Assembly: GCA_963810945.1 (NCBI GenBank)
Contig: CAWEPI010000008.1
Coordinates: forward strand, 6,645 to 70,644
Length of the DNA stretch: 64,000 nt
DNA from: an uncultured Actinomycetes bacterium
GTDB lineage: Bacteria > Actinomycetota > UBA4738 > HRBIN12
Direction: 5' to 3'
Shown: positions 22,972 to 63,855 of the stretch, one piece after another
Layout of the letters: the number at the start of each line of letters is the position of its first letter
Position numbering within the stretch: the first letter of the stretch is position 1
Notes under the pieces: generated by a model
What the model saw: the letters and a program-made list of their open reading frames with translations, nothing else
What the model was told of the DNA's origin: nothing
Database searches by the model: none
Translations under genes and position numbers: made by a program

Positions 22972-23100
22972 CGCCGGAACGCCCTTCGGAACCGCCTCGC
23001 GATACCCCCGAGTTTCCCCATCCGCTTCCGTGTATCTGCCCAGGTCGTGACCTATGCTCCGGCAGACATCCCGCGGCGGCCCCGGATCGCGAGAGACGTC

Positions 23101-24840: not shown

Positions 24841-25012
24841 CCTTCCCCGAACGCCGATGGTATCTAACTGACGATGCAGCGCTGCATCCGGTGGGCCCGC
24901 TTCTCGGGGGATGCTCGACCCTGCCTCGCGCCATCCCTCTCCGATACGGTGCCCCCACGCTCACATGCGGCAGCCGACGGACTCATCGCGCCGTGAGATC
25001 GGAGGATCTCGG

Positions 25013-38898: not shown

Positions 38899-39789
38899 GT
38901 GTCGATGGTGATCGTCGTGTTGGTAGGGGTGAGCGCCCTCGCCGGTCTCCTCCTCGCACTCGCGATCCGTCGCTGGCCCACCGCGGATCCCGCGGCGAGC
39001 GCGAGTCGCTCCGTGAGCCAGGAGCTGAGCACCCACCGGCGCCTCAGGTCCTTCGTGCGCGATCGGCTGGATCCGACCCGCGCCACCGGGTTCGCGCTCA
39101 CCCTCGCCTGCGCGTGCATCATCGTGGGAGGGATCGCGCTCGGCGTCCTCGCGTTCATCGTCCGCAGGAACGCCGGCACCACCGATGTGGACACGAGCGT
39201 CGCCAGCTGGGCTGCCGCCCACTCCGGCGCCACCAGCACGACGGTGCTCCGCGCGGTGACGCAGCTGGGCGCCACGCCCACGGTGATCGCGTTGAGCTTG
39301 GCCGTCGGCGCCGTGGAGTACCGGCGGATCAAGAGCCGCTCGTTGTGGCTGTTCCTGGTCCTCGTCGTGGGGGGCCAGCTCCTCATCGTGAACCTCATCA
39401 AGCTCGGCGTGGCGCGCGCTCGTCCCACGATCGATCCGTTGGCGGCCTTCTCCGGCAGCTCGTTCCCGAGCGGACATACGGCGTCGGCGGCCGCGTGTTA
39501 CGCGGCGCTCGCCCTGGTGTTGTCGCGAGGTCGGTCACCGCGCGCCCGCGCGGCGCTGGCCGGGGGTGCGGGCGCGATCGCCGTCGCCGTGGGGTGCTCA
39601 CGGATGCTGTTGGGCGTCCACTGGTTCACGGACGTCGTCGCGGGCCTCGCCGTCGGATGGGCATGGTTCCTCGTGTGCGCGATCGCCACCGGGGGTCGGC
39701 TGCTTCGGTTCGGCGCGCCCACGGCGGCGGTCGTCGAGGAGCCAGCGGTCGCGCACGCCAAGACCGCGTCACGGATCGGTGAGGGGTGA
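38899..39789 (+). CDS. PAP2-family phosphatase (divergent paralog)
   Basis: KLGVARARP...SFPSGHT...SRMLLGVHWFTD. Confidence 0.9.
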   Translation: MSMVIVVLVGVSALAGLLLALAIRRWPTADPAASASRSVSQELSTHRRLRSFVRDRLDPTRATGFALTLACACIIVGGIALGVLAFIVRRNAGTTDVDTSVASWAAAHSGATSTTVLRAVTQLGATPTVIALSLAVGAVEYRRIKSRSLWLFLVLVVGGQLLIVNLIKLGVARARPTIDPLAAFSGSSFPSGHTASAAACYAALALVLSRGRSPRARAALAGGAGAIAVAVGCSRMLLGVHWFTDVVAGLAVGWAWFLVCAIATGGRLLRFGAPTAAVVEEPAVAHAKTASRIGEG

Positions 39790-47344: not shown

Positions 47345-47844
47345 CGCACCGATCACGGCTGCGGTGATGAGACCTCGGACCATCAGTGGATCCGTCACGA
47401 CGTGCCCTCTCCAAGGGCCGTGCGGGCACCGATCAGCTCGAGCCTAGTCCCGCTTCGGGGCCGAGGGAAGAGGCGTCGCGTGGCGATGCCCAGCGGGCGC
47501 CGCGCCGGATCCGCGAAGACCGCAGCTCTGGTGGGATGCGAAGCCGTGGCTGAAGCCAGCTACGAATGGCTAGAGATCCTGTCAGCCGAAAGGCGGATGC
47601 GCCCGACCAGGGCTGAGTTCATCCTTTCGGCGTCGGGCAGGACGTGCGGCATTCACCCGGTCCGCCGAGGCGCCCAACGGCGAGGGGCTCTCCGGCAGGA
47701 CGGGCGCTGGCGTCCTGCCCGCCCATGCGTCCGCCGAGCACGGGATCAAGACGGCGACTGCCGTGCGCGATGACCTTGGCCCCACTACCGTGCGATTCAC
47801 CCGAGGCGACGTGCTCGAAGCATGTTCGTGTCGCCGGACCGCTG

Positions 47845-47917
47845 AGCTGGAGCGGGGAATCGAACCCCGGACCTCCTCCTTACCATGGAGGCGCTCTGCC
47901 GACTGAGCTACTCCAGC
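47845..47917 (-). tRNA. trnT: tRNA-Thr (GGU)
   Basis: GCTGGAGTAGCTCAGTCGGCAGAGCGCCTCCATGGTAAGGAGGAGGTCCGGGGTTCGATTCCCCGCTCCAGCT; TACCAT -10 at 47932-47937. Confidence 0.96.
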
Positions 47918-48008: not shown

Positions 48009-50114
48009 TCAGCCGGTCGTGTAGACGATGTGGAGGATCGTGGCGAAGGTGCCGTCGAAGGCCTCGGCCGTGCGCCTGCCCGTGCCGGTGACGATGACCA
48101 CCATGGGATTGCCGCTGACCCAGCCGGGTCGCCCGACGATCTCCTGGACGATCGACGTGAGGTCTGGCGTCCGCTGGTCGGGGCCGTGCACCTGGATCGT
48201 GGGCCACGGCGGCGGCACCCAGGCCACGCTCGCGACCGTCCGGGGGCGCGACGAGATGTTGAACGCGGTCGAGGAGAAGGTGGCCGGCTTGTCCGCCGCC
48301 TGGCCCTGGACGAGGAGGGAGACGGCTCCCGTGGTGACCTCGTCCGTCTCGAACTGGACGTAAGCGTTGCTGATCGTGGCTCCCGGCGGGATCGGCACGC
48401 TCGCGAACCGCACGCCGACCGTCTGATCGCTCCCATCGTTCACCAGCTCGAGGTCGGAGCTCGTCTTCGAGACGCTCCCGGTCGCCGACTCCTCGGCGTC
48501 GTCGGCGCTCGCGACGACGGGGATGTCGAGCATGACCGTGCCCGCGGCGTACACGGTCACGCTGACGTCGTCGCTCGCCTGCAGGCTCGAGTCGTCGGCG
48601 GTCAGACGCAGCACGTAGTTGCCGGGATCGCTGAAGCTCGCCGTCGACGTGGGGGACGTGGGATCGGCGAACGTCGCCGTGCCCGGCCCGCTCACCTGCG
48701 ACCAGCCGGCCGTCAGGGACCCAGGCGGGTTCGGGAGCCCGTCGTCGGCGACGGATCCCTGCAACGTGGCCTCACCCGGCAGCGTCACGGCCTGGTCCGG
48801 ACCGGCGTTCGCCGTGGGCGGACGGTTCTTCTTCGCGCAGTCCACGGACCCGGAGCGAAGGTCCGCGCCATTCACATCCTGGAACGACCACCCGAGGGCG
48901 TTCGCCGACCCGCCGGCCGCCGCCCCGTTCAAGGTCAGCGCGAGGAGTCCGGCCGTCTTGCCCTTGGACCATGCGACTCGCTGGCCGCTCGAGTCGCTCA
49001 CCGCGCCGCTGAGGCTGTGGCCTCCGGACCCCGCGATCAGCTCGACCATGTGCGCATCCGCGGTCCCCGCGTTGAAGTTCGCGTCCAGCGGCTTGTACTC
49101 CCCCATGGTGTGCACGTGGCCGACGAGGACGAGATCCCCTCCGTTGTTGGCGAGCAGGCTCCACATCGGCTTCTCCCCGGACTTGACCGAGCCGTCGCTG
49201 ATCGCCGGGATGTGCCAGTAACTCACGATGCACGCCGGTGCCGCGGGATCCGTGATCGCCGCCTGCACGAACTTGTACTGCGCGCTGCTCGCCGACATCG
49301 ACGCTTCCGAGTTCAGGTCCAGGAACAGGACCCCGCCGAACGTGAACTTGGAGAACAGCGGCCGTCCGTGCCAGTAGTCGATGAACGCCGCCTGGTTGGG
49401 GCCCTCGTGGTTCCCGACGGTGGGTTGGGTCACGTCGGCGGTCTTGCCCCACAACGTGCCTCCTCCCGGCACGTCCATCGACGACGCCCCGTAGTGGTTC
49501 CGGTTCTCGGTGAAGGTCCCCGTTTCGTAGACGTCTCCGAGGAACAGGAACAGCGGCGGGTCGGTCGCGGCGAGCCGGGCCGCGACGGCGTTCGAGGTGG
49601 CCTCGCCCGAAGGACCGTCCCCCACGGCCATCACGACCGGATCGTTGGGGCCGTTCCAGGCTCCCGGGAGGTAGTTGGTCCAATCGCTCGGGGAGTGTTG
49701 GAAGTCGGTCGTGTTCCCGTTGGCGAGCGTCACCGCTACGTCGACGGGCGTGGCGGAGGTCGATCCCGCCTGCACCCGAAGGGTTCCTGACCCGTCCAGG
49801 TACTTCTGTGTGGGCCAGACGAACGAGTAGTTGTTGGTCGCCGGGTAGGGACCGGTCGCCTGGATGAGCGTCGTGGCGGCACCGCCCGATGGGATCCAGG
49901 TCGAGAACACGGCGCCCGAGTTCTTGACGTTCGTGATCGTGATCGTCGTCTCGCCCACGAACGGACCGTCGGGAACCGTCACGCACACCGTGTGACTGCC
50001 CGACGAACCACAGCGGCTGACCGCACCCTCGGCCGCGGTCGGGACGAGGATCGACGCCGCGAGCGGGATCACGAGGAGGCACGAGAGCATGACGATCCGC
50101 GCCCTGGAGGCCAT
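48009..50114 (-). CDS. Secreted calcineurin-like metallophosphoesterase with PKD-like and C-terminal beta-sandwich domains
   Basis: Signal peptide; AVGD, FLGDVY, VGNHE, YWH, GHVH; NRPPTANAGPDQ...SWSQVSGPG...GNYVLRLT (PKD-like). Confidence 0.87.
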   Translation of the reverse strand: MASRARIVMLSCLLVIPLAASILVPTAAEGAVSRCGSSGSHTVCVTVPDGPFVGETTITITNVKNSGAVFSTWIPSGGAATTLIQATGPYPATNNYSFVWPTQKYLDGSGTLRVQAGSTSATPVDVAVTLANGNTTDFQHSPSDWTNYLPGAWNGPNDPVVMAVGDGPSGEATSNAVAARLAATDPPLFLFLGDVYETGTFTENRNHYGASSMDVPGGGTLWGKTADVTQPTVGNHEGPNQAAFIDYWHGRPLFSKFTFGGVLFLDLNSEASMSASSAQYKFVQAAITDPAAPACIVSYWHIPAISDGSVKSGEKPMWSLLANNGGDLVLVGHVHTMGEYKPLDANFNAGTADAHMVELIAGSGGHSLSGAVSDSSGQRVAWSKGKTAGLLALTLNGAAAGGSANALGWSFQDVNGADLRSGSVDCAKKNRPPTANAGPDQAVTLPGEATLQGSVADDGLPNPPGSLTAGWSQVSGPGTATFADPTSPTSTASFSDPGNYVLRLTADDSSLQASDDVSVTVYAAGTVMLDIPVVASADDAEESATGSVSKTSSDLELVNDGSDQTVGVRFASVPIPPGATISNAYVQFETDEVTTGAVSLLVQGQAADKPATFSSTAFNISSRPRTVASVAWVPPPWPTIQVHGPDQRTPDLTSIVQEIVGRPGWVSGNPMVVIVTGTGRRTAEAFDGTFATILHIVYTTG

Positions 50115-50327: not shown

Positions 50328-51638
50328 TCACGATCCCGTGGAGGCCCGGCCCACCGGGTGATACGAGAACCCCGCCGCCTCCAGCGCGTCGGGGTCCAGC
50401 AGGTTGCGACCGTCGACCATCGCCGGCTGCATCATCACCCCTTTGAGCCTGGGGAGGTCCAGATCGCGGAACTCCGCCCACTCCGTGCACAGCACCACGC
50501 AGGCGGCGCCTTCCGCGGCCGCGTACGGGTCGGCTGCCACCGTGAGCCCCTCGAGCTCGGCCTCAGCCTTGTCGCCGGCCATGGGGTCGTAGACGACGAC
50601 ACGAGCCCCCTCCGCGAGAAGGAGCTCCGCCAGCGCGAGGGCGGGCGCCCCGCGCACGTCGTCCGTCTCGGGTTTGAACGCCACCCCGAAGAGCGCCACG
50701 GTCTTCCCCTCGATGTTCCAGACCGCCTCCTCGACCTTGCGGGCGACGGCCTTGAGCGCCTCGTCGTTGACGCGGCCGGCCTCGCGCAGCAGGCCGAAGT
50801 CGTACCCGAGGCGGCCGGCGACCCGCTCGAGGGTCACGATGTCCTTCGGCAGGCAGTACCCGCCGTACCCGATGCCGGCCCTCAGGAAGGCGGGCCCGAT
50901 CCTCGGATCCGCGCCCATGATCTCGGTGACACCGTCGACGTCGGCGCCGGCGAGCTCGGACACGCGGGCCATCGCGTTCGCGAACGAGATCTTGGAGGCG
51001 AGGAAGGCGTTCGAGGCGAGCTTGGAGAGCTCGGCGGTGCGTGGGTCGGTCCGGATCACGCGCACGCCCGCGTCGAGCATGGGCGCGTAGAGCCGCTCGA
51101 GCACGTCGAAACCCCGGGGGTCGTCGGAGCCGATCACGAGCCGGTCGGGACGCAGGGTGTCCTCGATGGCATGCCCCTCCCGCAGGAACTCGGGACTCGA
51201 GACGGCAACGAAGTCGAGCTCCGGGCGTTCCATCCGCACGACCTTCTCGATGCGGCCCGTGGTGCCGGGCGGAACGGTCGACTTCACGACGAGGATCACG
51301 CCGTTCCCGGAGGCGCGCGCGATCTCTCGTGCGGAGTCCTCGACGGCCGTGAGGCTGCGATCGCCGAGCCCCACCGGCGGGCGGCCCACACATACGAAGA
51401 CCACCTCGGTGCCCTCGAGCGCCTCCGCGATCGTGTCGGCGAAGGCGAGGTGACCGTCGGCGAGGCCTCCCCGCAGCAGCTCGTCCAGGCCGGGCTCGTA
51501 GAAGGGAGCCTCGCCTCGACGCAGCATCGCCACCTTCTCGGCGGACGCATCGGTGCCGACGACATCGTGGCCCAGCCCGGCGAGGGTCGCGCCGGTGATC
51601 AACCCGACGTGGCCCGTTCCGACGATCGCGATCCTCAT
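50328..51638 (-). CDS. ugd: UDP-glucose 6-dehydrogenase
   Basis: IVGTGHVG, VVKSTVPPG, SPEFLREG, AELSKLASNAFLA, GYGGYCLPKD, FKPETDDVR, DGRN. Confidence 0.93.
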   Translation of the reverse strand: MRIAIVGTGHVGLITGATLAGLGHDVVGTDASAEKVAMLRRGEAPFYEPGLDELLRGGLADGHLAFADTIAEALEGTEVVFVCVGRPPVGLGDRSLTAVEDSAREIARASGNGVILVVKSTVPPGTTGRIEKVVRMERPELDFVAVSSPEFLREGHAIEDTLRPDRLVIGSDDPRGFDVLERLYAPMLDAGVRVIRTDPRTAELSKLASNAFLASKISFANAMARVSELAGADVDGVTEIMGADPRIGPAFLRAGIGYGGYCLPKDIVTLERVAGRLGYDFGLLREAGRVNDEALKAVARKVEEAVWNIEGKTVALFGVAFKPETDDVRGAPALALAELLLAEGARVVVYDPMAGDKAEAELEGLTVAADPYAAAEGAACVVLCTEWAEFRDLDLPRLKGVMMQPAMVDGRNLLDPDALEAAGFSYHPVGRASTGS

Positions 51639-52600
51639 GATGCGCTCCTTCCTGCGGTCACCGACGAACGGAACCAGTCGACCGTGCGCGCGACCCCTTC
51701 CTCGATATCGACCCGCGGCACGTACCCGAGCAGCCGCCCCGCGAGCGAGACGTCGGCCTGGGTGGTGCGGACATCCCCTTCGCGGATCCCCGTGTGGACG
51801 GGGTCCGGCACGACCCCCGTCCGCTCGGCGATCAGCGCGAGCAGACGGTTCACCGACGTGGGCTCCCCGCCTCCGCCGATGTTGAAGGCCCGTCCGTGCG
51901 CCTCCTCGGCGGCCCGGGCCGATAGGAGGTTCGCCTCGACGACGTCGTCGATGTAGGTGAAGTCGCGGGACTGCTCGCCGTCTCCGTGCACCTCGGGGGG
52001 AGCGCCGGTGAGGCAGGCCACGGTGAAGCGCGGCACGACGGCCGCGTACTCCGACTCGGGGTCCTGGCCGGGCCCGTACACGTTGAAGTACCGCAGGGCT
52101 ACGGTCGGCACGCCGTAGCTGAGCCCGATGCCCGCGCAGTACACCTCTACGGCGACCTTGCTCGCGGCGTACGGCGACCGCGGAGCGAGCGTCATCGACT
52201 CGCGCAGCGGGAACTCGGTCTGGTCGCCGTAGACCGAGCTGCTGCTCGCGGCGACGACCGCCGCCCCGGCGTCGCGGGCGGCCAGCAGCACGTTGAGCGT
52301 GCCGCGCACGTTCACGTCGGTCGTCATGCCGGGGTGCGCCATCGAGCGGGGCACCGACCGCTTCGCGCCCTGATGGTAGATCGCCGAGCATCCGCGGGCG
52401 GCGTCGGCGACCGCGGCCTCATCACGCAGGTCGGCCTGGATGAAGTCCACCTCGGGCGCGTCGCGCAGGTTGTCGAGCGAGCCGTCGGAGAGGTCGTCGA
52501 ACCCCACGACGTGTGTGCCGTCGGCCACGAGCCGCCGGCAGATGTGGGACCCGATGAACCCTGCGGCTCCGGTCACGAGCACCCGATCGGTCGATGTCAT
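51635..52600 (-). CDS. NAD-dependent epimerase/dehydratase (WbpP/GalE-like)
   Basis: VTGAAGFIG, ASSSSVYG, PYAASK, LRYFNVYGPGQ, RDFTYIDD. Confidence 0.92.
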   Translation of the reverse strand: MTSTDRVLVTGAAGFIGSHICRRLVADGTHVVGFDDLSDGSLDNLRDAPEVDFIQADLRDEAAVADAARGCSAIYHQGAKRSVPRSMAHPGMTTDVNVRGTLNVLLAARDAGAAVVAASSSSVYGDQTEFPLRESMTLAPRSPYAASKVAVEVYCAGIGLSYGVPTVALRYFNVYGPGQDPESEYAAVVPRFTVACLTGAPPEVHGDGEQSRDFTYIDDVVEANLLSARAAEEAHGRAFNIGGGGEPTSVNRLLALIAERTGVVPDPVHTGIREGDVRTTQADVSLAGRLLGYVPRVDIEEGVARTVDWFRSSVTAGRSAS

Positions 52601-52686
52601 CGACCGGACCCTACCGGTCGCGACGCCGGAGCGGAAGGCCTGCGAGCCACAGAACCTCGCGTGGACGCGAAGACTCATGCATCCGT

Positions 52687-52701: not shown

Positions 52702-52882
52702 GCATCGGGCGGCCGCCCGCGCGGGGGCGGTCCGTTAGCGTTGCGTTCCGGCTTCGCTGGGAGTCCCGGACGGGGCGCGCCCGCGACCTGTCGAGTTGAG
52801 GAGGCAGACGGTGGGCAGGGGATCGCGAGCTGAGCTCGCCAACGCGGATCACGGCTCGGCCCCGGTGTCGTCCGTCCCGGAG

Positions 52883-54355
52883 ATGCCCGAGGATCAGCGG
52901 CCGCTCGACCTCGTGGTGTCGCTGTGCCTGAAGCTGGAGGCCGCCCACGTCCCCTACTGCCACTTCAAGAGCAACGAGGCGTTGGACCGTTCCCTGTCGG
53001 GCGAGAACGACCTGGATCTGTTGGTCGGGGCCGAGGGGGCGGAGCGCTTCCTCGAGGTCCTCGCGGCGCTCGGGTTCAAGGAAGGACGTCCCCCGAGGGT
53101 GCGACGGATCCCGGGGGTCGCGCAGTACTACGGTCTCGACGCCGCGACCGGCCGACTCGTGCAGGTGCACGCGCATCGACGACTCGTGTTCGGCGACGAC
53201 ACGACGAAGAACTTCGCGCTCGACATCGAGGATGCCTACATCGCCTCCGCGCCGCGCGGGCCTCTGCTCCGCGTCCCTTCACCCGAGTACGAGTACCTGC
53301 TCTTCACGCTGCGGATGGTCGTCAAGCACTGCACCCCCGACGCGATGTTCATGCTCCAGGGGCGGATGAGCTCGTCGGAGCGGCGCGAGCTGATCTGGCT
53401 GACCGACCGCGCGGACCCGGCTCGCGTCCGGGAACTCGTCCGGACGGACCTGCCGTTCATCGGGCAGGAGCTGTTCGATCGATGTGTGGCCGCCGTGCAG
53501 CCGGGGTGCGCCGCGTGGTTCCGCTGGCGCACGGCGGGGCGTCTGCACCGGGCCCTCGCGGCGCACAGGAGACGGCGGCGGCTCGCGGACGCGTCGTTGC
53601 GGGTCCTCCGCAGGGTGACCTGGGTCCTGCGCCGGCTCCTTCGAGGACGGCCCGGGAAGAGGCTCGCGGGAGGAGGTGCGCTGATCGCGGTGGTCGGCGG
53701 CGACGGCGCGGGTAAGTCGACCGCGATCTCGGATCTGTCGGGTTGGCTATCCGGTCCCTTCGACGTCGAGCGCGTGCACCTGGGCAAGCCGCCACCCGGC
53801 CTGCTGACGGTCGTGGTCAAGGGACCGATGTTCGTGCTGCGCAAGCTCGGGATGTTCCGGAGCACGCTCGTGCCCGTCCAGTCCCTCCGAGAGCAAGGGA
53901 CGTCGTTCCCCGGATACGGATACATCGTGTGGCACGTCCTCACGGCTCGAGACCGATACCGGCTCTACGCCAGAACGCGGCGATCCGTGCTGTCGGGACG
54001 GATCGTCCTGTCGGATCGATTCCCTCTGGAGAAGATCCGGACCATGGACGGTGAGAAGACGACCTGGTTGGCGGAGCGCCACGACCTGGGGTCCGTTGCT
54101 CGGTGGCTCGTCTCGTTGGAGCGCCGCTACTACGCGAACTTCATATGGCCCGACCAACTGATCGTGCTCAGGGTCGATCCCGCGATCGCGGTCGAGCGCA
54201 AGCAGCGCGAGGAGGAAGCCGGATTCGTCAGACCTCGCTCGAGCGAGGTCTGGCAGGCGGACTGGTCCGACACGCCCGCGGTCGTGGTGGATGCGGGACG
54301 ACCGCGGGAGGAGGTCCAGGCGACGATGCGGTCGATCGTCTGGTCGCAGCTGTGA
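52883..54355 (+). CDS. Fusion of a nucleotidyltransferase-fold domain and a thymidylate-kinase-like P-loop domain
   Basis: N-terminal CHFKSN...SGENDLDLLV (G-x-x-D-x-D); C-terminal IAVVGGDGAGKST, IVLSDRFP, PDQLIVLRVDPAIAVERK. Confidence 0.75.
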   Translation: MPEDQRPLDLVVSLCLKLEAAHVPYCHFKSNEALDRSLSGENDLDLLVGAEGAERFLEVLAALGFKEGRPPRVRRIPGVAQYYGLDAATGRLVQVHAHRRLVFGDDTTKNFALDIEDAYIASAPRGPLLRVPSPEYEYLLFTLRMVVKHCTPDAMFMLQGRMSSSERRELIWLTDRADPARVRELVRTDLPFIGQELFDRCVAAVQPGCAAWFRWRTAGRLHRALAAHRRRRRLADASLRVLRRVTWVLRRLLRGRPGKRLAGGGALIAVVGGDGAGKSTAISDLSGWLSGPFDVERVHLGKPPPGLLTVVVKGPMFVLRKLGMFRSTLVPVQSLREQGTSFPGYGYIVWHVLTARDRYRLYARTRRSVLSGRIVLSDRFPLEKIRTMDGEKTTWLAERHDLGSVARWLVSLERRYYANFIWPDQLIVLRVDPAIAVERKQREEEAGFVRPRSSEVWQADWSDTPAVVVDAGRPREEVQATMRSIVWSQL

Positions 54356-55086
54356 GCTTGGTCGTCGAGCTCTGCGGGCTCCCGGGGGCAGGCAAGTCAT
54401 ACCTCGCGCGCGAAGTCCTGGCGTCGACCGCCGGGGGGGACATCGACATCCGACTGCCGACCGAGGCGATCGGTCCCGACGTGCCGGGGGTCCGGAGGAT
54501 CGGGAAGAAGCTGCGGCTGGTCACTGGAGAGACGCTCCGGCAACCGGTCCTCTCGGTCAACACGATGCGCCGCATCGTCGGTTCGGGACAGGGTGGGGTG
54601 GGCCCGATCTCCTCACGCTGGGTCCAGTGGATGGCCACCCAGCGACTGATGGCCGTCGCGCGATCGACGCCCGGCGTGCACCTGTTCGACGAGGGCGTGA
54701 CGCAGGCGCTCTGGTCCTTGGGTCTCCGCGGTGATCCGTCGACGACCCTCGCCGCCCTGCGTCGGACGGTAGGGCGTTGGGAACACCCGGATCACATCGT
54801 CGTCCTCGACCTCCCGATCGAGCTGATCGACCGTCGCCTGAGCGAGCGGGCCTCGCGTCACAGCCGGCTCCAGGATGTGGCCGACGCCGAGACACGGCGG
54901 GCAGAGCTCGCGAAGGGGAAGGAGCTGCTCGAACGGCTCGCCGACTGGTGGGTCGAGGTGCTGCCGTCGGATGTGTCGGTCGCGTGGATGGGTGAGGACG
55001 CCTGCTCGGCGCGGTCGCGTGGGGGCTCGGGGCTGCTCGCCACGATCACGGGTCGGCCGTATGCCTCCGGCGTCGAGATCGGGTAG
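54352..55086 (+). CDS. Second P-loop (NMP-kinase-like) protein
   Basis: GTGA overlap; VELCGLPGAGKS, LFDEG, PDHIVVLDLPIELIDRRLSER. Confidence 0.72.
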   Translation: MSLVVELCGLPGAGKSYLAREVLASTAGGDIDIRLPTEAIGPDVPGVRRIGKKLRLVTGETLRQPVLSVNTMRRIVGSGQGGVGPISSRWVQWMATQRLMAVARSTPGVHLFDEGVTQALWSLGLRGDPSTTLAALRRTVGRWEHPDHIVVLDLPIELIDRRLSERASRHSRLQDVADAETRRAELAKGKELLERLADWWVEVLPSDVSVAWMGEDACSARSRGGSGLLATITGRPYASGVEIG

Positions 55087-55230: not shown

Positions 55231-56551
55231 GTGGATCTCAATGAAGCTGTTCGCCGTATCTTCCTCGTGCATCGCAAGCTCATCTTCCTGTGCGTGGTCC
55301 TCGGCCTGATCGGCGGCCTCGCCGTGACCGCGGTGCGTCCGGCCACGTACACCGCCGCGGCGCGCTTGACGCTCGGACAGGGCGACGGGGCGTTGCAGGA
55401 CCCCGTCGCGGTCGCGGACGCGGCCGAAGGCCTCGTGACGAGCAGGGTGATCATCGAGAACGCCGTCAAGGCCGCCGGTCGTGGTCTCGATCCGGTCGAC
55501 GTCGCGAACGACGCGATCAAGGTCAAGACCCTCGGAACCTCCGACCTCGTGCAGCTCGAGGTCACCGACACTCGCCCGGTGGTGGCGTCCGCGCTCGCGA
55601 ACGCCCTCGGACAGGAACTCGTCAACCGTTGGCCGGACGTCAGCGGCGGACGGACCTTGGACGCGCTCCAACCCCTCAAGGACGAGATCGATTCGCTCAG
55701 CGAACAGAAGACCAAGCTCGACCAGATCGATCGCGCTCCTCGACATCCAGATCGCCCAAGAGACCCACAGCGTGACCGCAGAGCAGCTCAAGGCGAAGCG
55801 TGATGTCCTGTCCTCGAACAGCGATGAGTTGGCGCAGCGGCGATCGCTCCTCGAGTCGCAACTGAACGCGGTCTACGTGGCCGGCGCGACTCAGCAGGCA
55901 CCGCAGGTCATCGACCCGGCCGTGCCTCCCATCGTGCCGGATCCGAAGCATCGCGCGTCGGCCGGAGCCCTCGGCGCGCTCCTCGGGTTGCTCATCGGGA
56001 TCTGCATCGCGGCGCTCCTGGAGTCGTTCCGACCGACGCTCGCCGACTCCGACGCCGTCGCCGATGCGCTCGGCGTCCCGATGTTGGGGAAGATGCCGAC
56101 CGACGCGGATGGGCAGTCCGAGGCGATGCGGAAGTCCGCGCTCAAGGTTCGATTCGCCGCGACGACGGTCCACGCGAAGACCATCGAACTCGTATCGATC
56201 GGCCCGTCGATCGACCTCTCTCCCCTCTCGGACTCGCTCGAGGAGCTCGACGGCGCCGCGGGTCCGCGTCTGTCCTCTGCCGGCGCTCGGAACGGCCGGA
56301 TGAGCGTGCACCGGTTCGGGGTCGATCCCGAGCCGCCGACGCGATCCACCGGAACCGGCGGGAAGACCGACAGCGCGCTCGTCGCCGTCGTGCCCTCGAC
56401 GATCAAGCGCTCCGATCTCCGCGAGCTCGGCGACCTCCAGGCCCTCACGTCCTGGCCGCTCGTGGGGGTGGTCACCTATGACCGCTCGAGGTGGATGCAG
56501 CGTCGTGCTCGGCCGGCCCCTCAACCGACCCGCGATGAGGGGGCGGCTTGA
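55231..56551 (+). CDS. Wzz/GumC-like polysaccharide co-polymerase, frameshifted near 55740
   Basis: MDLNEAVRRIF plus TM and PATYTAAARL; coiled coil; QVIDPA...P; TM GALGALLGLLIG; ESFRPTL. Confidence 0.8.
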
Positions 56552-57909
56552 CCTCTCTCAGCATGCCGGCCGACACGCTTGCACGACCGGTCGTGTCGAC
56601 CCCTCGGTTCGGGCGGCCCACGCGAGACATGTCCGGGCTCGATCAGCGCTCGGCAGCGCGCGCGATCGGCGCGAGCATCGCGGTGATGCCGATCCTGCGA
56701 CCCGGCCTCGCGGGTTCGGTGACCCCCGCCGATGTGGTGATCGCCGCGTCGATCCTCGTCGTCGCGCTGTGGCTCGGCTCGAACCGGCTGCCGGTCAAAC
56801 TGCCTCTGGGCGTCGCCGTCGCGACGTCGGTGGTGGGCGGTCTCGTGGCGGCCATCGTCGGCGACCACGTGACGATCGGCGCCATCGCGATCGGGCAGGA
56901 CCTCCTGCTCTTCGGTTGGTGCGTGGCCATCGCCAACGTCTGCAGGACGCCGGGGGCGCTCGCCGTGGTCATCCGGGCGTGGGTGTGGAGCTCCGTCGCG
57001 GTCGGGGTCGTCATGATCATCGGGGCCGCCACGGGGTGGACGGCCCTCGCCGGTCAGGAGGTCGAGGGCGGACGCGCCGCGTTGCTGTTCCCGAATCCGA
57101 ATCAGGCCGGAGGGTACTTCGCCGCGTCCTTCATGGTGATCCTCCTCTGCGGCGTGATCCCCCGTTCCAGCGTCAAGGTCGTGGCCGCCGTCGTGGTCGG
57201 CGTCGCCATGCTCCTCGCGGCATCCAACGCGGCGATCGGCGGAACGCTGTTCGGGCTCCTCGTCGCCGGGATCATCGCGATCGCGAAGGCACGGGGCGTG
57301 TTGGTCGCGATCGCGGTCGGCGCGATCGCCGCCGCGGCCCTGACGGCGGGGGCGGTCGCGTTCGTGCGGCTGGATCTGGTCACGGCCGCTCAGCAGAGCG
57401 ACATCAGGCTCTTCCGGAACACCCTCGGGAGGAGCCAGCAGAGCGCAGAGGATCGCTTGGGGAGGTTCGAGCAACTGCGCGAGCTCTACCTCGTCCAACC
57501 GCTGCTGGGCTACGGGCCCGCGGCGACGAAGGCGGTGCTCGCCGACGGGGCCTACAGCAGCGGGAACGCGAAGGGTGCCCATGACGACTATGCGGCGACG
57601 ATCGTCGAGCGAGGCGTGATCGGCGTGATCGGACTGATGCTGTTGATCGGGTCGTTGATCAGGATGACCGCCTCGTTCGCCGCTCGGTCGCTCGACCCCG
57701 GCTTCGCTCGCGTGGTCACGCATCCGGAGTTCCTCGCCGGCGCATTGGTCGCGGTGGCCGTCTCCTCCCTCACCCACGAGGTCCTCCACTTCCGATACGT
57801 GTGGCCGCTCTTCGGACTCGTGGCGTGCCTCTACCTCTGGGCTCGACCGGACACGGCCGGCCGTCACGACATCGGGATCGGCCCTGCGGCCCGAGGAGGG
57901 CGCGCATGA
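56548..57909 (+). CDS. O-antigen polymerase/ligase family (Wzy-like)
   Basis: About 11 TM segments; FPNPNQAG, LGYGP, GAHDDYAATIVERGVIG. Confidence 0.85.
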   Translation: MTSLSMPADTLARPVVSTPRFGRPTRDMSGLDQRSAARAIGASIAVMPILRPGLAGSVTPADVVIAASILVVALWLGSNRLPVKLPLGVAVATSVVGGLVAAIVGDHVTIGAIAIGQDLLLFGWCVAIANVCRTPGALAVVIRAWVWSSVAVGVVMIIGAATGWTALAGQEVEGGRAALLFPNPNQAGGYFAASFMVILLCGVIPRSSVKVVAAVVVGVAMLLAASNAAIGGTLFGLLVAGIIAIAKARGVLVAIAVGAIAAAALTAGAVAFVRLDLVTAAQQSDIRLFRNTLGRSQQSAEDRLGRFEQLRELYLVQPLLGYGPAATKAVLADGAYSSGNAKGAHDDYAATIVERGVIGVIGLMLLIGSLIRMTASFAARSLDPGFARVVTHPEFLAGALVAVAVSSLTHEVLHFRYVWPLFGLVACLYLWARPDTAGRHDIGIGPAARGGRA

Positions 57910-59524
57910 CGACGACCGCCGCCGCCGCCGCGGATCAGCCTGAGCCGTCGGGCTCCGCGCGCCTGCTCGCGTCGAATACGGCCTGGCGCCTCATCGCGTT
58001 CGGCGCCCGGACGTTCAGCGGCGTGTTGGCGACCGTGCTGCTCGCACACATGCACGGCCCGGTCGGGCTGGGGAGGTTCCAGTTCGCCCTGACGCTGACC
58101 CTCCTGCTGAGCTTCGCCGTCGCGCTCGGGCTGCCCAAGCTGCTCGTGCGGGAGCTCGCGCGGCATCCGGAGGCGATCAAGCTCCGCATCGAGTCCGCGC
58201 TCGTCGTCTCGCTCGGCGCCGGGGTCGTCGTCACGGGCCTCCTGCTCGGGGTGGGGGTGCTCTTCCACGGGGATACCTCGGTCTTCGTGCTGGCGGGCGT
58301 GGCGCTCGCGGCCGACTCGGCGATGCGGATCGTGATGGTCCCGTTCTGGGCGCTCGAGCGGATGCGCTACGAGGCGCTGTGCGTGGGCGTCCAGGAGGGC
58401 GCCTTCGTCGTGTTGACCGTCGTGGTGCTCGTGGCCGGGTTCGGCCCGGGCGGCGTGATGCTCGCGTACCTCGTGTCTCGGGTGATCGGGCTCATCACCG
58501 CGTGGACGGTCGTCGCCGTCAAGCTCCACATCCGTCTGGTCCCCCGCTGGCACGCGGGCGAGATGGCGCCGATGATGAAGCGGGCAACCCCGTTCGCCCT
58601 CGACGACGCGCTGTCGTTGGCGTACATCCGACTCGACACCGTGATCCTCGGGATCATCATCGGTGCGCACGAGGTCGGCCTCTACCAGTCGGCCGTGAAC
58701 CTGGTCCTGTACCTCAACATCATGCCCCGGATGCTGAACTTCTCGATGTATCCGCGGATGAGTCGGGCCTGGCCCGACAACGTCGCCCGAGCTCCGGCGA
58801 CTCTGCGACTCCTCGCTGATGATGCTGGGCGCGCTCGCGATGCCGATCGCCGTCGGCTCCTTCCTCCTCGCCCCGCGGATCTTCGGCGTCATGTACGGGT
58901 CCGGGTTCGACCGGGGCGTCCTGGCCTACCTGCTGGTGACGCCGCTCACCCCGATCCGCATGCTCGGCAACACGCTGGGCACGGCCCTCACGGCCGCCGA
59001 CCGCCAGACGCCGCGCACCGTCGCCGTTGGTGTCGCCGCGGGCGTGAACGTCGTCCTCAACCTGATCCTGATCCCGCAGCTGGGGGCTGTTCGGCGCCGT
59101 CGCCTCCACGATCGTCACGGAGACCGGCCTCTTCACGGCCTACGTCCTCATGCTCAGGCGGGTCATCGGTCCCTCGTGCCTCGTCTCGGCGGTCGCCATC
59201 CCCGGGATGGCATGTGTCCCGATGGCGCTCTCGATCGTGCTGCTCTTCGACGCACCGCTCGCGGTCATCCTGGTGGCGGCGGGTTGCGTCTACACCGCAT
59301 CGCTGTACGCGATCGCCGCCCTCATGACGCCGGGGAGCACGAATCCATCCGCGCTCCGTCGTGAGCGCGTTCGTGAGATGGGCTCCCATGCCGACGGCCT
59401 GATCCGGCAGGCCCGAGCCCGGTTGGGTCGGCCTACCCGCTGTACGCCGTTCGGGGCAGCCCGGCACCACATTCCGTGCCCCGACCGGCCTACACCCTTT
59501 ACAGGAGGGTGTTGCGCTCCGTAG
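57906..59524 (+). CDS. Wzx-type flippase, frameshifted near 58800 and 59100
   Basis: ASNTAW, GPVGLGRFQFA, LAYIRLDTVILG...EVGLYQSA, NVVLNLILIP. Confidence 0.87.
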
Positions 59525-59598
59525 ACTCCTCGCAGGATGTGTCTTACAGCAGATGCTGTATGACCCCAGGGCATCGGCCGGAGTGGAGGGGAGCTGGA

Positions 59599-61217
59599 TT
59601 GGCGCAGACGATGCGGATGGCGTCGGCGCGGGCCAGCCGCCACGACGGCGACGCGGTGTTGCGTGAGATGGCTCACGAGTTCGGGTCCGAACCCGACGTC
59701 GAGGCCGTGATACGCGCGTCATCCCACTGGATCGGCGCGGCTCTGGGTTGGGAGTTGGACGCCATGCGATTCGCGCTTCCCGACGCGCGCGGTGACCTCC
59801 GAGCCGTGCTCAGCACGGGCGAGGAGCTCATCGAGGATGTCTCCCTCCGGAGGGCACGCCTGGCGTTCGACCGGAAGGCAACGAGACGGCGCCCTGCTCG
59901 GACGCGCCGGGGGTCGCAGGCACTCACCCTCCCCCTCGTCGCGCGAGGGGTCGCCGTCGGCGTGCTCGACGTCGTGGCGCCGTCGCATGTCATCGATGAG
60001 GGATGGGAGACGCTCGATGCGGTGGTCAGCCGGATCGCGATCGCCCTCGCGAACGTCGCTGCGCGGAGTTCGATCGAGCGTGGCCGCGAGGCGATGCGGA
60101 AGGCCGCGCTCCTGGGAGCCCGGGTGGCGCACGCGCCCACGCGCGAGGAGGCGATCCGCGAGATCGTCCGCGCACTCCATCAGGACTTCGGCCTTCGGGC
60201 GGCCGCATGGCTCGTCGAGGAGGGCGGGCCGCTCCTCGTGTCCACGAGGGGTCTCGGGTCGCAGGCGACGGGATCGATTGCGCGCGATCGCCGCGTCGGG
60301 ACCGGGCGATCTGTCCACGCGGCTCGCGTCGACGTTCGCGTCGGTCACCGCCTCGGACGACCCCGATGTGATCGATGCCGGCGGGACCATCGTGGTCATG
60401 GATGCGATACCAGGATCCGCAGCTGCGCGAGGCCATCGTGCTCGCTCAGGCGGTCTCCGGTCAGCTCCTCTCGTGGTCGTTCTCGCTCGAGCAGCTGCAG
60501 AAGCGCAACGTCTCCCTCGATACCGCGTTGACGCTGACCGCGCACGAGCTGCGGGGCCCGCTGCTGGCCGCCAAGGCGACGATCGACGGGATGCTGCAGG
60601 AGGCGGGACGTGGGGGCGCCGACCGTGCACGCCTCCGGGACTCGCGACGCCAGCTCGAGGAACTCGCCAGCATCGTGGATCCCTTGCTTCGTTGGTCGGT
60701 CTCCGGCGACGGCCTGCGACGACGCGGGGGGGATCTCGTCGGCCTGGTCGTCAAGGCGATCGACTCCGTCGTCCTCGAGACGGGTGAGGACCGCGTGGTG
60801 CTCGAGGTGCCCCTGGATCCCTCGAGCGTGCCGATGTCACGTCGTCACCTCTCGTTCGCGATCGCGAACCTGATCCGCAACGCGATCGCGTTCTCTCCAC
60901 CCGACTCGGTCGTCTCGGTTCGCGTGGCGTTCGATGACGCGACGGCGACGGTCAGCGTCCACAACGAAGGCATCGGGGTGGCCGAGGAGGAAGTCGAGTC
61001 GATCTTCGAGCCGTTCTCCCGCGGTCGCTCCGGGCGATCGGCGCGTGCCGGCAACGGTCTCGGTCTCTTCGTCGTCCAGCGGGTCGCCGACTCACACGGC
61101 GGCCGGGTGTGGGTGAAGTCGGGTGAGAAGGGAACGACCTTCCATCTCACGCTTCCACTCCGCACGGCCGCGCCGGCCGAAAGGGGTGTTCCGCATCAAC
61201 GCGCTGATCGTGGATGA
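59599..61217 (+). CDS. GAF-like sensor plus HisKA histidine kinase, frameshifted
   Basis: LPLVARGVAVGVL (GAF-like); AHELRGPL (H box), NLIRNA (N), NEGIG, FEPFSRG (F), GNGLGL (G2); no TM seen. Confidence 0.82.
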
Positions 61218-61877
61218 CCACAGGCTGTTCGCCGAGGCGATCAAACCCGCCCTGGAGCGGCTCGGCATGGATGTCGCGCTCGCCACCACGGGACAGGAGG
61301 CCTTGAGAGATCGTCGCCACATCGAAGGTCGACATCGCCCTCGTCGACCTCGGGCTCCCCGACATGAAGGGGATCGACGTGGGAGCGCGGATCGTCGACA
61401 TGCAACCCGAAGACGACCGTGCTCGCACTTACGGCGATCGATGATCAGCGGTTCGTTGCCCCCGTGCTCCAGGCCGGATTCAGCGGCTACCTCACGAAGG
61501 GCCTGCGGATCACAGGCCTGGTGAGTGCCATCACGGCGGCTCTTGAAGGCCAGCTCGTGACCCCCGGGCTTTCCACCGGCTCGAACGGCGCCTCCAGGAC
61601 GCGGACCCAACAGCACGTCGAGCTGCTCGCCTCGACGCTCACTGCCCGGGAGCGTGAGGTGCTCGCGCACCTCGCCCAAGGCGAAACGGGCCAGGAGATC
61701 GCACGCGGGATGTCGATCAGCGTCCATACCGTGCGAACCCACGTGCAGAGCATCCTCGCCAAGCTGCAGGTGCACTCCCGACTCGAGGCGGCGATGTTCG
61801 CCGTGCGGCACGACCTCGTTCCGAGCTCGCCTGAGGAGCCCGACGCTCGCCCTCGTTCGAACAGGCGGGCCGTCTGA
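61186..61877 (+). CDS. NarL/LuxR response regulator, frameshifted
   Basis: LIVDDHRLF, ALVDLGLPD, GYLTK, LTAREREVL...TVRTHVQSILAKLQVHSR. Confidence 0.87.
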
Positions 61878-61891
61878 GTCCGGCTCCCACG

Positions 61892-61916
61892 CACGACGTA
61901 GCGGCTCTACGTCGTG
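61892..61916. promoter_or_regulatory. CGTA-N7-TACG palindromic site (extended)
   Basis: CACGACGTAG-cggct-CTACGTCGTG, a perfect 10-bp inverted repeat upstream of the second regulator. Confidence 0.65.
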
Positions 61917-61973
61917 TACCGCGTGTGGCACCCGTTGCGGCCACCTATCGTCGCCACCGGAAAGAGGGGAACC

Positions 61974-62669
61974 ATGGCTGAAGAACGCGAGCCGATCCGC
62001 GTGCTGCTCGCAGACGGGCACGCCTTGTTCCGCGAAGCGGTGACGAGTGTGCTCCAGGGCGAGAGCGACATCATCGTCGTCGGTGACGCATCCGACGGCT
62101 CCGCGGCGATCGCCGAAGTCGAGCGGACTCGTCCGGATTGCGTCTTCGTCGACGACCAGCCCGGATCGATCGACGGCGTCGAGGCGACGCGGAGGATCAA
62201 GGACCGCCTCCCCGAGTGCGACGTGATCCTCCTGGCGTCCGACGCGGATGAGGCGACGCTCGTCGCGTCGATCGAAGCGGGCGCGAGCGGCTACCTCACG
62301 AAGGACCGTCCGGTCGTGGAACTCATCAACGCGGTGCGCACCGTCCGTCGAGGTGAGGTGGTCGTTCCCCCTCAGATGTTGCGGTCGCTGCTTTCGGGTC
62401 TGATCCGGCGACGCAAGGAACAGGATGAGGCGATGCACCGCGTGTCTCGCCTCACCCGCCGTGAGCTGGAGGTCCTCGCGCTGCTCGCCGATGGCGCCGG
62501 CAACGAGGGGATCGCGGAGAGCCTCTTCATCAGCCCGCAGACGGCGCGGACGCACGTCCAGAACCTGATCGCGAAGCTGGGACTGCATTCGAGGCTCGAG
62601 GCGGCGATGTTCGTCGCGCGCAACGGCATGCTTCGAGAGCTCGTGGAGCTCACCCCCCAGAGTGGCTAG
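61974..62669 (+). CDS. NarL/LuxR response regulator
   Basis: VLLADGH, CVFVDD, GYLTK, LTRRELEVL...TARTHVQNLIAKLGLHSR. Confidence 0.92.
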   Translation: MAEEREPIRVLLADGHALFREAVTSVLQGESDIIVVGDASDGSAAIAEVERTRPDCVFVDDQPGSIDGVEATRRIKDRLPECDVILLASDADEATLVASIEAGASGYLTKDRPVVELINAVRTVRRGEVVVPPQMLRSLLSGLIRRRKEQDEAMHRVSRLTRRELEVLALLADGAGNEGIAESLFISPQTARTHVQNLIAKLGLHSRLEAAMFVARNGMLRELVELTPQSG

Positions 62670-63855
62670 CGGCATGTCCGCTCTGCACGATCGGCCACAG
62701 GTGATCCATGTCGCGACCCGCTACCTGCGCGGGGGCTCTGAAGCGCGGATCCAGGACATCGTCCGAGCGCTGCCGGACGTCGATCACCATCTGATCGTCG
62801 GGGCCGAGTCCGACGTGGATCTCGCCCGCGAACGACTCGATCCGGCGTCGCTCACGGTCGTTCGATCGCTCGTGCGGGAGCCGAACCCGCGGTCGGACGT
62901 CTCAGCCTTCCTACGGCTGGTTTCGCTGTTCCGCAGCACGCCCCATCACCTGTTGGTCACGCATCAATCGAAGGCGGGGATCCTCGGCCGTTCGGCCGGA
63001 CGGTGGGTGGGTCGGGCCTCCATCGTCCACTCGCTGTCGATGGCGAGCTTCGGTCCCGGCTACCCACGTTGGCAGGACTACCTGTTCCGCACCTTGGAGG
63101 CGCGACTCGCTCGAGCCACCGATGGGTTCACGGTGGTCGGGGCCGACCTGGCGGGCCGCTACACGAGGATCGGCGTGGCGCCCCACAAGTTCCACGTGGT
63201 CCGGTCCGATGCCGGGCTCTTCCCGAGGCCCGCTGCGGTCGACCGGATCGAGGCTCGCGAGGTGACGGGCCTGCCGTTGGACAGGCCGATCGTCCTGTAC
63301 CTGGGCAGTCTCGAGCCGCGGAAGAACGTGCTGGATCTCGTCGATCTGCTCGACCGTTCGGTCCGCGCTCGGCGTTCTCACGGGCGGCCCTTCCTGGTGG
63401 TGGCCGGGCAAGGGCCCCTCGAAGAGCCCTTGAGGGAATCGCTACGCCGGCGCGGCCTCGCAGGCGATTCCGTCTTGCTGGGGTTCGTCGAACGACCGGC
63501 ATCCCTCGTCGCCGCAGCGGACGCGCTCATCCTCCTCAGCCGGGTGGAGGGTCTTCCCCAGGTGCTGGTGCAGGCCGCCGCCGCGGGGACGCCGTTCGTC
63601 TCCTACGAGGTCGACGGAGCGCGCGAACTCCTGGAGCTCGGCGCGGTGGGGGCCGTCGTTCCCACGGGTGACCTTCCGGCCGCCGCGGACGCCCTCGGCC
63701 GGGTCCTGTCATCGGATCGCCCCGCCGCGACCCTCGATCTCGCCTCATGGTCACCCGACGCGATCGCCGAGGCCTACCGGCGGGTCCTGCACCCACTCGT
63801 GCATGCCTCCCTCGCCGGGTCGGAGATCAGACGCAACCCCGTCCATCCTGCGTAG
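62662..63855 (+). CDS. Glycosyltransferase family 4 (GT-B)
   Basis: VTHQSKAG, LYLGSLEPRKN, SRVEGLPQVLVQA (E-x7-E motif with the second Glu as Gln). Confidence 0.9.
   Translation: MASGMSALHDRPQVIHVATRYLRGGSEARIQDIVRALPDVDHHLIVGAESDVDLARERLDPASLTVVRSLVREPNPRSDVSAFLRLVSLFRSTPHHLLVTHQSKAGILGRSAGRWVGRASIVHSLSMASFGPGYPRWQDYLFRTLEARLARATDGFTVVGADLAGRYTRIGVAPHKFHVVRSDAGLFPRPAAVDRIEAREVTGLPLDRPIVLYLGSLEPRKNVLDLVDLLDRSVRARRSHGRPFLVVAGQGPLEEPLRESLRRRGLAGDSVLLGFVERPASLVAAADALILLSRVEGLPQVLVQAAAAGTPFVSYEVDGARELLELGAVGAVVPTGDLPAAADALGRVLSSDRPAATLDLASWSPDAIAEAYRRVLHPLVHASLAGSEIRRNPVHPA

Follow-up and report, generated by a model that had tools for sequence, protein, structure and literature searches.

Most bacterial capsules, O-antigens and exopolysaccharides are products of Wzx/Wzy pathways, whose core components are regarded as known. 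In these pathways, cytoplasmic tailoring takes place on the undecaprenyl-diphosphate-linked repeat unit and precedes flipping. Kinases encoded beside polysaccharide assembly genes include the BY-kinases (Wzc, CapAB, Wze), which belong to the MinD/ParA class and carry a Walker A′ motif and a tyrosine cluster, and WbdD, a protein-kinase-fold enzyme with a methyltransferase that serves ABC-transporter pathways. Enzymes of the LicD/fukutin type have a nucleotidyltransferase (NTase) fold, occur in glycan loci and add phosphodiester-linked substituents from CDP donors. In the pseudomycoidin lasso-peptide cluster, the P-loop kinase PsmK first phosphorylates a peptide serine, after which the NTase PsmN is required for hexose addition, its D-x-D motif being required as well (PMC6993621).

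Here we analyzed a stretch of 64,000 nucleotides from an uncultured Actinomycetes bacterium (GCA_963810945.1, contig CAWEPI010000008.1; the whole stretch is called the window below) and, within it, a pair of adjacent genes that we call A and B. The protein of gene A joins an NTase domain (N) to a thymidylate-kinase-fold domain (K), and gene B encodes a second protein with a predicted nucleoside monophosphate (NMP) kinase fold. The pair shares with PsmK/PsmN the combination of a PF14907-like pol-beta NTase and a P-loop kinase; an ANT(2″) template was reported for PsmN too, and the D-x-D required in PsmN is invariant in A. PsmK, however, is of the HPr-kinase type and not of the thymidylate-kinase fold, and PsmK and PsmN are separate proteins with a peptide-serine substrate, encoded in a cluster for a peptide that is made by ribosomes and modified after translation (RiPP). 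Judged by analogy, A-B functionally most resembles PsmK/PsmN, and LicD-type decoration systems may be compared by analogy only.

The first-pass annotation of this DNA had likened the pair to LicD/fukutin transferases and to WbdD. LicD is a plausible functional analogue, but unlike the N domain of A it is not fused to kinases, and we rejected the identity: there was no match to the LicD family (PF04991) at E ≤ 0.01, no LicD, fukutin or FKRP among the 50 best Foldseek matches, and no DDD-x-D motif in the loci. The comparison with WbdD failed as well, as WbdD has a protein-kinase fold and acts in chain capping for an ABC transporter, whereas the locus here encodes Wzx and Wzy, with units modified before flipping. 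An identity with the BY-kinases was also rejected; A and B have the NMP-kinase fold, and B has a variable C-terminus without a tyrosine cluster and no CbiA, AAA_31 or ParA match. Overall, the first-pass interpretation was partly supported: a glycan-pathway module stands, while its two analogies and the specific chemistry are unproven.

The reading that we tentatively favor is that A-B is a dedicated cytoplasmic, membrane-proximal tailoring module of Wzx/Wzy heteropolysaccharide pathways that would add a phosphate-linked substituent to the repeat unit before flipping. A kinase-then-transferase module is favored because of the PsmK/PsmN precedent, the logic of Wzx/Wzy pathways, and the position of the genes beside the flippase gene or fused to it. 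We observed the domain architecture, the folds, conserved catalytic residues, tight gene coupling, fusions of the domains to one another and to Wzx, and a near-exclusive residence in Wzx/Wzy loci; we infer the substrate, the reaction order and the membrane association of the module.

Domain architecture and conserved residues of A and B

The pair and its parts lie at the following positions in the window.

52798-52813 (+): Shine-Dalgarno sequence GAGGAGG (52798-52804) and conserved GTG start of gene A at 52811
52811-54355 (+): gene A, 514 aa, in which a basic amphipathic helix lies between the nucleotidyltransferase domain and the thymidylate-kinase-fold domain
52886-53578 (+): gene A residues 26-256, two-lobed pol-beta-fold nucleotidyltransferase domain, PF14907-like
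53561-53665 (+): gene A residues 251-285, Arg/Trp-rich amphipathic interdomain helix, candidate membrane-surface anchor
53657-54355 (+): gene A residues 283-514, thymidylate-kinase-fold P-loop kinase domain
54352-54355 (+): GTGA overlap of the gene A stop and the gene B start
54352-55086 (+): gene B, predicted 244-aa NMP-kinase-fold P-loop protein

The open reading frame (ORF) of gene A spans 52796-54355 (+) and has a GTG at 52811, six bases after GAGGAGG. In the orthologs of two relatives (loci L004 and L005, 89% and 82% identical, respectively), this codon is GTG and TTG, while the ATG at 52883 is not conserved. Because of this difference in conservation we placed gene A at 52811-54355, with 514 aa. 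The first-pass annotation had described a fusion protein of 490 aa; its architecture stood and its length did not. All of the motifs that it had listed (SGENDLDLL, GGDGAGKST, SDRF and PDQLIVLRVDP in A; GLPGAGKS and DEG in B) were found in the sequence, and so was the translational coupling that it had noted, with the GTG at 54352 overlapping the TGA at 54353-54355. The first 25 residues of A are predicted to be disordered.

Conservation of A was assessed in an alignment of 80 primary orthologs from at least nine phyla. In the N domain, K53, S54, N55, D67, D69, K133, E161, R168 and K172 are invariant, and D110, the presumed third metal ligand, is present in 79 of the 80 sequences. The domain was tested against the pattern hG[GS]-x9-13-D-x-[DE] plus a third carboxylate, and the pol-beta signature was found as an invariant K53-S54-x12-D67-x-D69; the motif reported earlier as G-x-x-D-x-D is indeed an NTase signature but is better read in this form. 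When residues 26-256 were modeled alone with AlphaFold2, pLDDT was 92.4. Foldseek matched this model to ANT(2″)-Ia, LnuA, Cid1, OAS3 and CCA-adding enzymes, a mutually consistent set whose best members were small two-lobed enzymes (TM-score ~0.5; Foldseek probability 0.97-1.0 for ANT(2″)-Ia and LnuA). By this model, the N domain has the pol-beta nucleotidyltransferase fold, as had been proposed for the N-terminus from its motif. PF14907 (NTP_transf_5) itself scored 18.9 bits on A, below its gathering threshold of 31.2, over model positions 95-196 of 249; many A homologs carry precomputed PF14907 matches.

ANT(2″)-Ia and LnuA, which are aminoglycoside and lincosamide O-nucleotidyltransferases that transfer NMP to a sugar hydroxyl, were the best structural matches of the N domain and aligned over ~190 columns, nearly the whole two-lobed enzyme. 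They differ from it in sequence (identity 10-14%, at a TM-score of ~0.5) and in setting, the genomic context of A not being one of resistance, and the invariant K133, E161, R168 and K172 are additional relative to them.

Sequence profiles alone were weak and structure prediction was decisive for A, and together the features of the pair go far beyond chance. The model of whole A (56-sequence alignment) had a mean pLDDT of 90.3 and a pTM of 0.85, and its 50 best matches in the PDB were all thymidine monophosphate (dTMP) kinases, aligned on the C-terminal 230 residues; for the K domain, E was 1e-7 and the target-normalized TM-score ~0.6-0.69. The family profile of A also reached the thymidylate kinase 2plr of the PDB by sequence (E 9.5e-7). 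Invariant in the K domain are G296, D298, G299, G301, K302, S/T303, H323, G325 and P327, and further D381, R382, G396, D402, R403, R463 and R476; at residue 404, 78 of the 80 orthologs have F, Y or W, which gives a DRY-type motif. Fold, P-loop, DR[YFH] motif and lid arginines are thus those expected of thymidylate kinase. It shares with true thymidylate kinases (Tmk) the fold, the acidic P-loop residue (G-G-D-G-x-G-K-S/T), DR[F/Y/W], the lid arginines and the PD-x-hhh-L-x-V-x-P strand.

Unlike Tmk, however, the K domain falls under all curated cut-offs, is fused to an NTase, is housed in polysaccharide loci and has an unaligned NMP-binding region. PF02223 (Thymidylate_kin) scored 17.9 bits against a cut-off of 27, TIGR00041 16 against 83.25 and PRK07933 15.6 against 193. 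The A profile hidden Markov model (HMM) aligned only the P-loop and the C-terminal third to an approximate E. coli Tmk sequence. At the position of the thymine-stacking aromatic residue, four before the phosphate-binding Arg, the K domain has Thr or Val and not Phe, as judged by eye against the same approximate sequence. There is also a ~45-residue insertion after strand 2. Because the dTMP-binding middle of Tmk is unaligned and this insertion is present, the acceptor of the K domain is probably not dTMP. A is not a bona fide Tmk, though it has the fold and motifs of one.

Gene B carries the motifs E-x2-GLPGAGKS and DEG-x2-Q-x-LWS and a lid R-L-x2-R-x-SRHSR. It passes Pfam AAA_33 (PF13671) with 30.5 bits against 27, a generic family that says little on substrate. 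Among 57 B-type proteins, E-x2-G-x2-G-x-G-K, D-x-G and two lid arginines are invariant. The B profile matches only the P-loop and strand-4 regions of APS (adenosine 5′-phosphosulfate) kinase, adenylate kinase and thymidylate kinase, and B is collinear with the kinase domain of A, including the insertion after strand 2, in a weak hhalign match (E 5.7e-4, probability 30%). The same catalytic-signature residues as in the 80 orthologs of A are retained in six divergent A paralogs. From this conservation, all three domains (N, K and B) look like active enzymes.

Between the N and K domains, helix 251-285 has a hydrophobic moment of 0.82, the highest in the protein (mean 0.23, sd 0.13), and a net charge of +6 to +7; it is helical in the AlphaFold2 model, and its Arg/Trp pattern is kept in the family consensus. 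These features are compatible with binding to a membrane surface, which makes the helix a candidate for a membrane role. No transmembrane segments were found in A or B, and no extra domains in the N-terminal extensions of the longer homologs P0037 and P0077.

Spread, neighborhood and fusions of the family

A search of a 5.8-billion-protein index gave 916 matches of ~500 aa, named only 'thymidylate kinase' or 'hypothetical protein'. HMMER over 1.84 billion representatives gave 706 clusters (50% identity) at E ≤ 1e-30 and 1750 at E ≤ 1e-10, and at least 288 species of a species-level GTDB genome collection encode A. Carriers belong to at least nine phyla: Actinomycetota, Chloroflexota, Cyanobacteria, Acidobacteriota, Planctomycetota, Gemmatimonadota, Bacteroidota, Omnitrophota-like organisms and Proteobacteria. 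Among them are the cultured Methylobacter marinus A45, Modestobacter (e.g., sp. I12A-02662), Blastococcus (e.g., B. capsensis BMG 804), Calothrix sp. NIES-2100 and Leptolyngbya. A tblastn search found no plasmid-borne homologs. Literature searches found no characterization of the A-B family and, in line with what the first-pass annotation had said, no characterized protein with the architecture of A.

To describe the neighborhood, all ORFs of 82 loci were clustered, and conserved clusters were named by Pfam and mapped back with local HMMs. The following features were counted within 10 kb of A.

Wzx, Wzy or GT4 (any): 74/82 loci
Wzx: 64/82 loci
GT4: 63/82 loci
B-type gene: 60/82 loci
Wzy: 56/82 loci
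sulfotransferase: 24/82 loci
second A paralog: 10/82 loci
canonical PAPS (3′-phosphoadenosine 5′-phosphosulfate) synthase: 5/82 loci

The eight loci without Wzx, Wzy or GT4 are mostly short contigs. The typical order is Bac_transf (initiating transferase), A, B, secreted lyase, Wzx, Wzy, GT4, B′, A′, GT4, and independent precomputed gene calls agree with our survey on gene order. A-B is thus near-exclusive to Wzx/Wzy polysaccharide loci, and the gene-neighborhood survey that had been suggested as a check placed homologs mostly inside glycan loci. We conclude that the A-B family is an uncharacterized, widespread variant of glycan-tailoring enzymology.

The two genes are tightly coupled. B lies directly 3′ of A in 46-57 of the 82 loci, depending on the criterion, and in 53 the Walker A motif of the ORF after A starts 21-220 nt past the A stop (median 54). 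Fused A-B proteins 700-830 aa long were seen in at least eight clusters (50% identity), and one cluster contains five independent full-length members. Loci without an adjacent B (L015, L016, L029, L031 and L049) encode a ~490-aa fusion of a B-type and a K-type domain with no NTase, a family with more than 561 matches (e.g., P0199). The genes for these B-K fusions lie ~10 kb from A on the opposite strand and adjoin a Gal-3-O-sulfotransferase-like gene.

The A(+B) module directly flanks the Wzx gene in 34 of the 82 loci. In P0401 (1054 aa; L087 157-3321), a complete Wzx flippase is fused to A, and in P0449 (1230 aa; L086 175-3867), a complete Wzx flippase is fused to A and B; both fusions, each known from one contig, are no more than suggestive. 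Two more proteins are encoded separately just 3′ of P0449 in L086, one thymidylate-kinase-like (234 aa) and the other a PF14907 NTase (351 aa).

Other members of the neighborhood were also recorded. In 15 of 84 loci we found Bac_transf as a gene or a motif, immediately upstream of A in several; with a canonical gene of this kind present, the idea that the pair provides the initiating phosphoglycosyl transferase was rejected. A role in defense was rejected too, as neither A nor B had a PADLOC match at E ≤ 0.1. Large secreted repeat proteins are encoded near A in 44 of the 82 loci (outside the window as beta-helix/NosD, cadherin-like or pectate-lyase-like proteins) and are probably polymer-processing enzymes; in Methylobacter-type loci, the 451-aa gene after B encodes a secreted pectate-lyase-like protein, and we therefore rejected B or the next gene as a polysaccharide co-polymerase (PCP)/BY-kinase pair. 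Sulfotransferases (Gal-3-O-sulfotransferase-like and Sulfotransfer_3) occur in the same cassette, e.g., in L026, L034, L044, L050, L053 and L076, and a bifunctional ATP-sulfurylase/APS-kinase is encoded in five loci as well. A sulfated polymer is probable in Chloroflexota, Acidobacteriota and Cyanobacteria. In Nocardioidaceae-like loci (L009, L011, L013 at 4422-5393, L041 and L052), a 323-aa protein without a Pfam or NCBIfam match recurs upstream of A and shows, by eye, APH/choline-kinase-like motifs (HGxLxPxHV ... DDW ... GDPxxD). Neighbor clusters u46, u47, u48 and u55 were discarded as off-frame junk ORFs of high-GC DNA.

Proposed tailoring of the repeat unit and rival explanations

Under the tailoring reading, the N, K and B domains would work together, probably as a complex beside the Wzx flippase. 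One or both P-loop kinases would phosphorylate the undecaprenyl-diphosphate-linked repeat unit using ATP; The target of B would be a sugar hydroxyl; for K, in which the DR motifs that bind phosphate in NMP kinases are retained, it could be a phosphomonoester. Next, the N domain would draw on a nucleotide-activated donor or NTP to place a substituent on either this phosphate or a sugar hydroxyl, and the product would be a phosphodiester-linked decoration made before the repeat unit is flipped and polymerized. The nearest structural relatives of the N domain, ANT(2″)-Ia and LnuA, nucleotidylate sugar hydroxyls, which speaks for tailoring, as does the strongly cationic, amphipathic helix between N and K. 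The chemistry of A-B may be phosphorylation or nucleotidylation of a glycan, a proposal for which the Wzx fusions and the PsmK/PsmN precedent now give a better frame.

Several points weigh against this reading. The Foldseek E-values of the N domain are weak (2e-3 to 3e-2), direct flanking of Wzx is limited to the 34 loci given above, and the Wzx fusions come from one contig each and may be artefacts of assembly or frameshift. PsmN has yet to be shown active in vitro (PMC11912497). Tailoring enzymes are usually less conserved than A-B and less fixed in place by Wzx/Wzy, and an assembly or regulatory role fits this about as well. Finally, both the phosphate content of the product polysaccharide and the chemistry of A-B rest on inference.

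Alternatively, the product of A-B may be soluble, an activated donor or cofactor obtained by phosphorylating a phosphomonoester stepwise and then transferring a nucleotidyl group, for use by the GT4 or the sulfotransferase-like enzyme of the locus. Such a route would resemble PAPS synthesis or the making of an unusual NDP-sugar, and the CDP-phosphoramidate route of Campylobacter capsule O-methyl phosphoramidate biosynthesis offers a model for it. The DR motifs retained in the K domain bind the acceptor phosphate in NMP kinases, two NMP-kinase-fold domains plus an NTase resemble the logic of NMP to NDP to NTP to transfer, and, of the other cytoplasmic enzymes, GT4 alone is near-universal (63 of 82 loci), each A/B pair adjoining GT4 in some loci. 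Known sugar-1-phosphate nucleotidyltransferases, on the other hand, use a different fold, and both the Wzx fusions and the amphipathic helix suggest that A-B acts at the membrane. A PAPS synthase was rejected, since A and B lack PF01747 and PF01583 and the canonical bifunctional enzyme is encoded separately in sulfotransferase loci. A phosphoenolpyruvate (PEP) mutase in one family of phosphonate gene clusters has a thymidylate kinase and a PF14907 NTase at its flanks (PMC8942020), which would also suit donor synthesis, but no PEP mutase motif was found in any of 84 loci, and a link to phosphonate biosynthesis was rejected. On balance we regard donor synthesis as doubtful. We would call it unlikely that the two P-loop domains instead bind or hydrolyze ATP to gate, energize or checkpoint flipping by Wzx or polymerization by Wzy, standing in for the BY-kinase/PCP module that the loci mostly lack, with the NTase as a sensor or signaling element. 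A-B is the most conserved part of the cassette, in a fixed position beside Wzx/Wzy, and the Wzx-A and Wzx-A-B fusions would suit such a role. No Wzc-type BY-kinase cluster was present among the neighbors, and the Wzz-like gene, where present, directly follows B; the gene after B in Methylobacter-type loci encodes a secreted lyase and not a PCP, so that no co-polymerase is encoded there. Yet lid arginines and DR motifs of the NMP-kinase fold typify small-molecule kinases and not switches or motors, the catalytic carboxylates of the NTase are invariant, which argues for catalysis, B lacks the BY-kinase hallmarks noted above (a C-terminal tyrosine cluster and a CbiA or AAA_31 match), and the Wzz-like protein is confined to close actinobacterial relatives. 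That protein, in the relatives of the window, had no BY-kinase match in the PDB, and a degenerate kinase domain suspected by eye was unsupported.

The substrate could also be a protein or peptide, as for PsmK/PsmN, with nearby secreted beta-helix, PKD or CBM proteins, for example, being phospho-glycosylated. PsmN, the only PF14907 relative touched by experiment, acts on a phosphorylated peptide, the Wzy_C family includes O-oligosaccharyltransferases, and large secreted repeat proteins are common near A (the 44 loci above). We nevertheless find this improbable: by their appearance these secreted proteins are lyases or hydrolases, as is typical for exopolysaccharide loci, they are exported while A and B are cytoplasmic, and no precursor-peptide or lasso-peptide genes are present. 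That A and B are housekeeping or salvage nucleotide kinases (for dTMP and for another NMP) that just happen to lie in this locus is hardly credible, and the first-pass annotation had also argued against it, even though JGI auto-annotation labels the family 'thymidylate kinase' and the K domain shows the corresponding fold with the P-loop D and DRY-like motifs. Scores are far under the equivalog cut-offs and the K domain is always fused to an NTase; the dTMP-binding middle is unaligned, with the stacking aromatic replaced, as judged by eye, relative to an approximate Tmk sequence; and 74 of 82 copies are in glycan loci, with up to two copies per locus.

We also considered, as a speculation that we regard as doubtful, that N, K and B are a trio forming a self-contained machine for activation and transfer, docked on Wzx, with a chemistry undescribed for bacterial polysaccharides. 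In one version, a phosphomonoester on the lipid-linked unit would be phosphorylated successively, a nucleotidyl or pyrophosphoryl group would then be transferred, and the glycan would end up nucleotidylated or decorated with a diphosphodiester; in the other, the trio would license flipping in an ATP-dependent manner. Under either version, the trio would be a new, phylogenetically widespread class of Wzx/Wzy pathway component. A three-domain module that stands beside the flippase and polymerase in at least nine phyla, and is sometimes fused to the flippase, is unstudied. If modification of the repeat unit is true, a large class of exopolysaccharides from the environment, many of which are sulfated, is predicted to bear phosphate-linked decorations, and PF14907-type NTases and thymidylate-kinase-fold domains routinely mis-annotated as 'thymidylate kinase' would gain a first functional context. 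The cultured carriers make the question directly testable.

The locus in the window

The other genes of the locus are as follows.

50328-51640 (-): ugd (UDP-glucose/GDP-mannose dehydrogenase), with three UDPG_MGDP_dh domains from residue 252 of a 687-aa ORF; the mechanical ORF reaches further upstream
51635-52678 (-): NAD-dependent sugar epimerase/dehydratase (Pfam), divergent from gene A
55231-56551 (+): wzz-like chain-length-determinant gene with a 1-nt insertion near 55727; partial TIGR03007 and TIGR03017 matches (NCBIfam)
56548-57909 (+): wzy (Wzy_C polymerase/ligase family), intact relative to the L001 ortholog
57801-59353 (+): wzx flippase (Polysacc_synt) with two 1-nt insertions near 58786 and 59078
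59476-62669 (+): two-component system with a GAF/HATPase histidine kinase, response regulator 1 and an intact LuxR-type response regulator 2 (61914-62669)
62662-63855 (+): GT4 glycosyltransferase

The glycan neighbors named in the first-pass annotation were thus present, but it had omitted the histidine kinase and two LuxR-type response regulators between wzx and GT4, and wzz and wzx turned out to be frameshifted. The locus is 90.5% identical at the nucleotide level to its relative L004, against which seven single-base insertions were seen, at ~55727 (wzz), 58786 and 59078 (wzx), 60261 and 60408 (histidine kinase), and 61307 and 61409 (response regulator 1). These sites coincide with frame changes in tblastn comparisons with orthologs (L001 and L005 in the case of wzz) and lie outside long homopolymers. 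Genes A, B, wzy and GT4 and the gene for response regulator 2 are intact. The frameshifts may reflect either true decay of the export and regulatory genes or an error of assembly.

Scans for promoters and terminators around genes A and B found none, the sigma-70 scan upstream of A included. G+C is ~70% and uniform across the window, without compositional sign of an island, and the presence of tuf, rplK, nusG and three tRNA genes indicates that the window is chromosomal. One of these, a tRNA-Thr(GGT) gene at 47844-47917 (-), lies at the upstream edge of the polysaccharide region. No sulfotransferases were found in the scanned part of the window (42-64 kb). Large secreted repeat proteins are encoded at 43227-44315 (+) and 48009-50114 (-), with CBM_4_9 and with PKD and metallophosphoesterase domains, respectively. 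A second Wzy_C-family membrane protein is encoded at 21301-22971 (+), followed by a 597-aa protein without a Pfam match (23047-24840, +) and a major facilitator superfamily transporter (24911-26614, +); this trio (21301-26614) adjoins tRNA-Trp, nusG and rplK. A PAP2-family phosphatase gene at 38899-39789 (+), ~13 kb upstream of the pair, possibly encodes an undecaprenyl-diphosphate phosphatase. Positions 52760-52852, which cover ~50 nt upstream of the A start and the first 40 nt of A, are 100% identical to L004, exceeding the locus-wide identity of 90.5%, and may represent a conserved 5′ leader or regulatory element.

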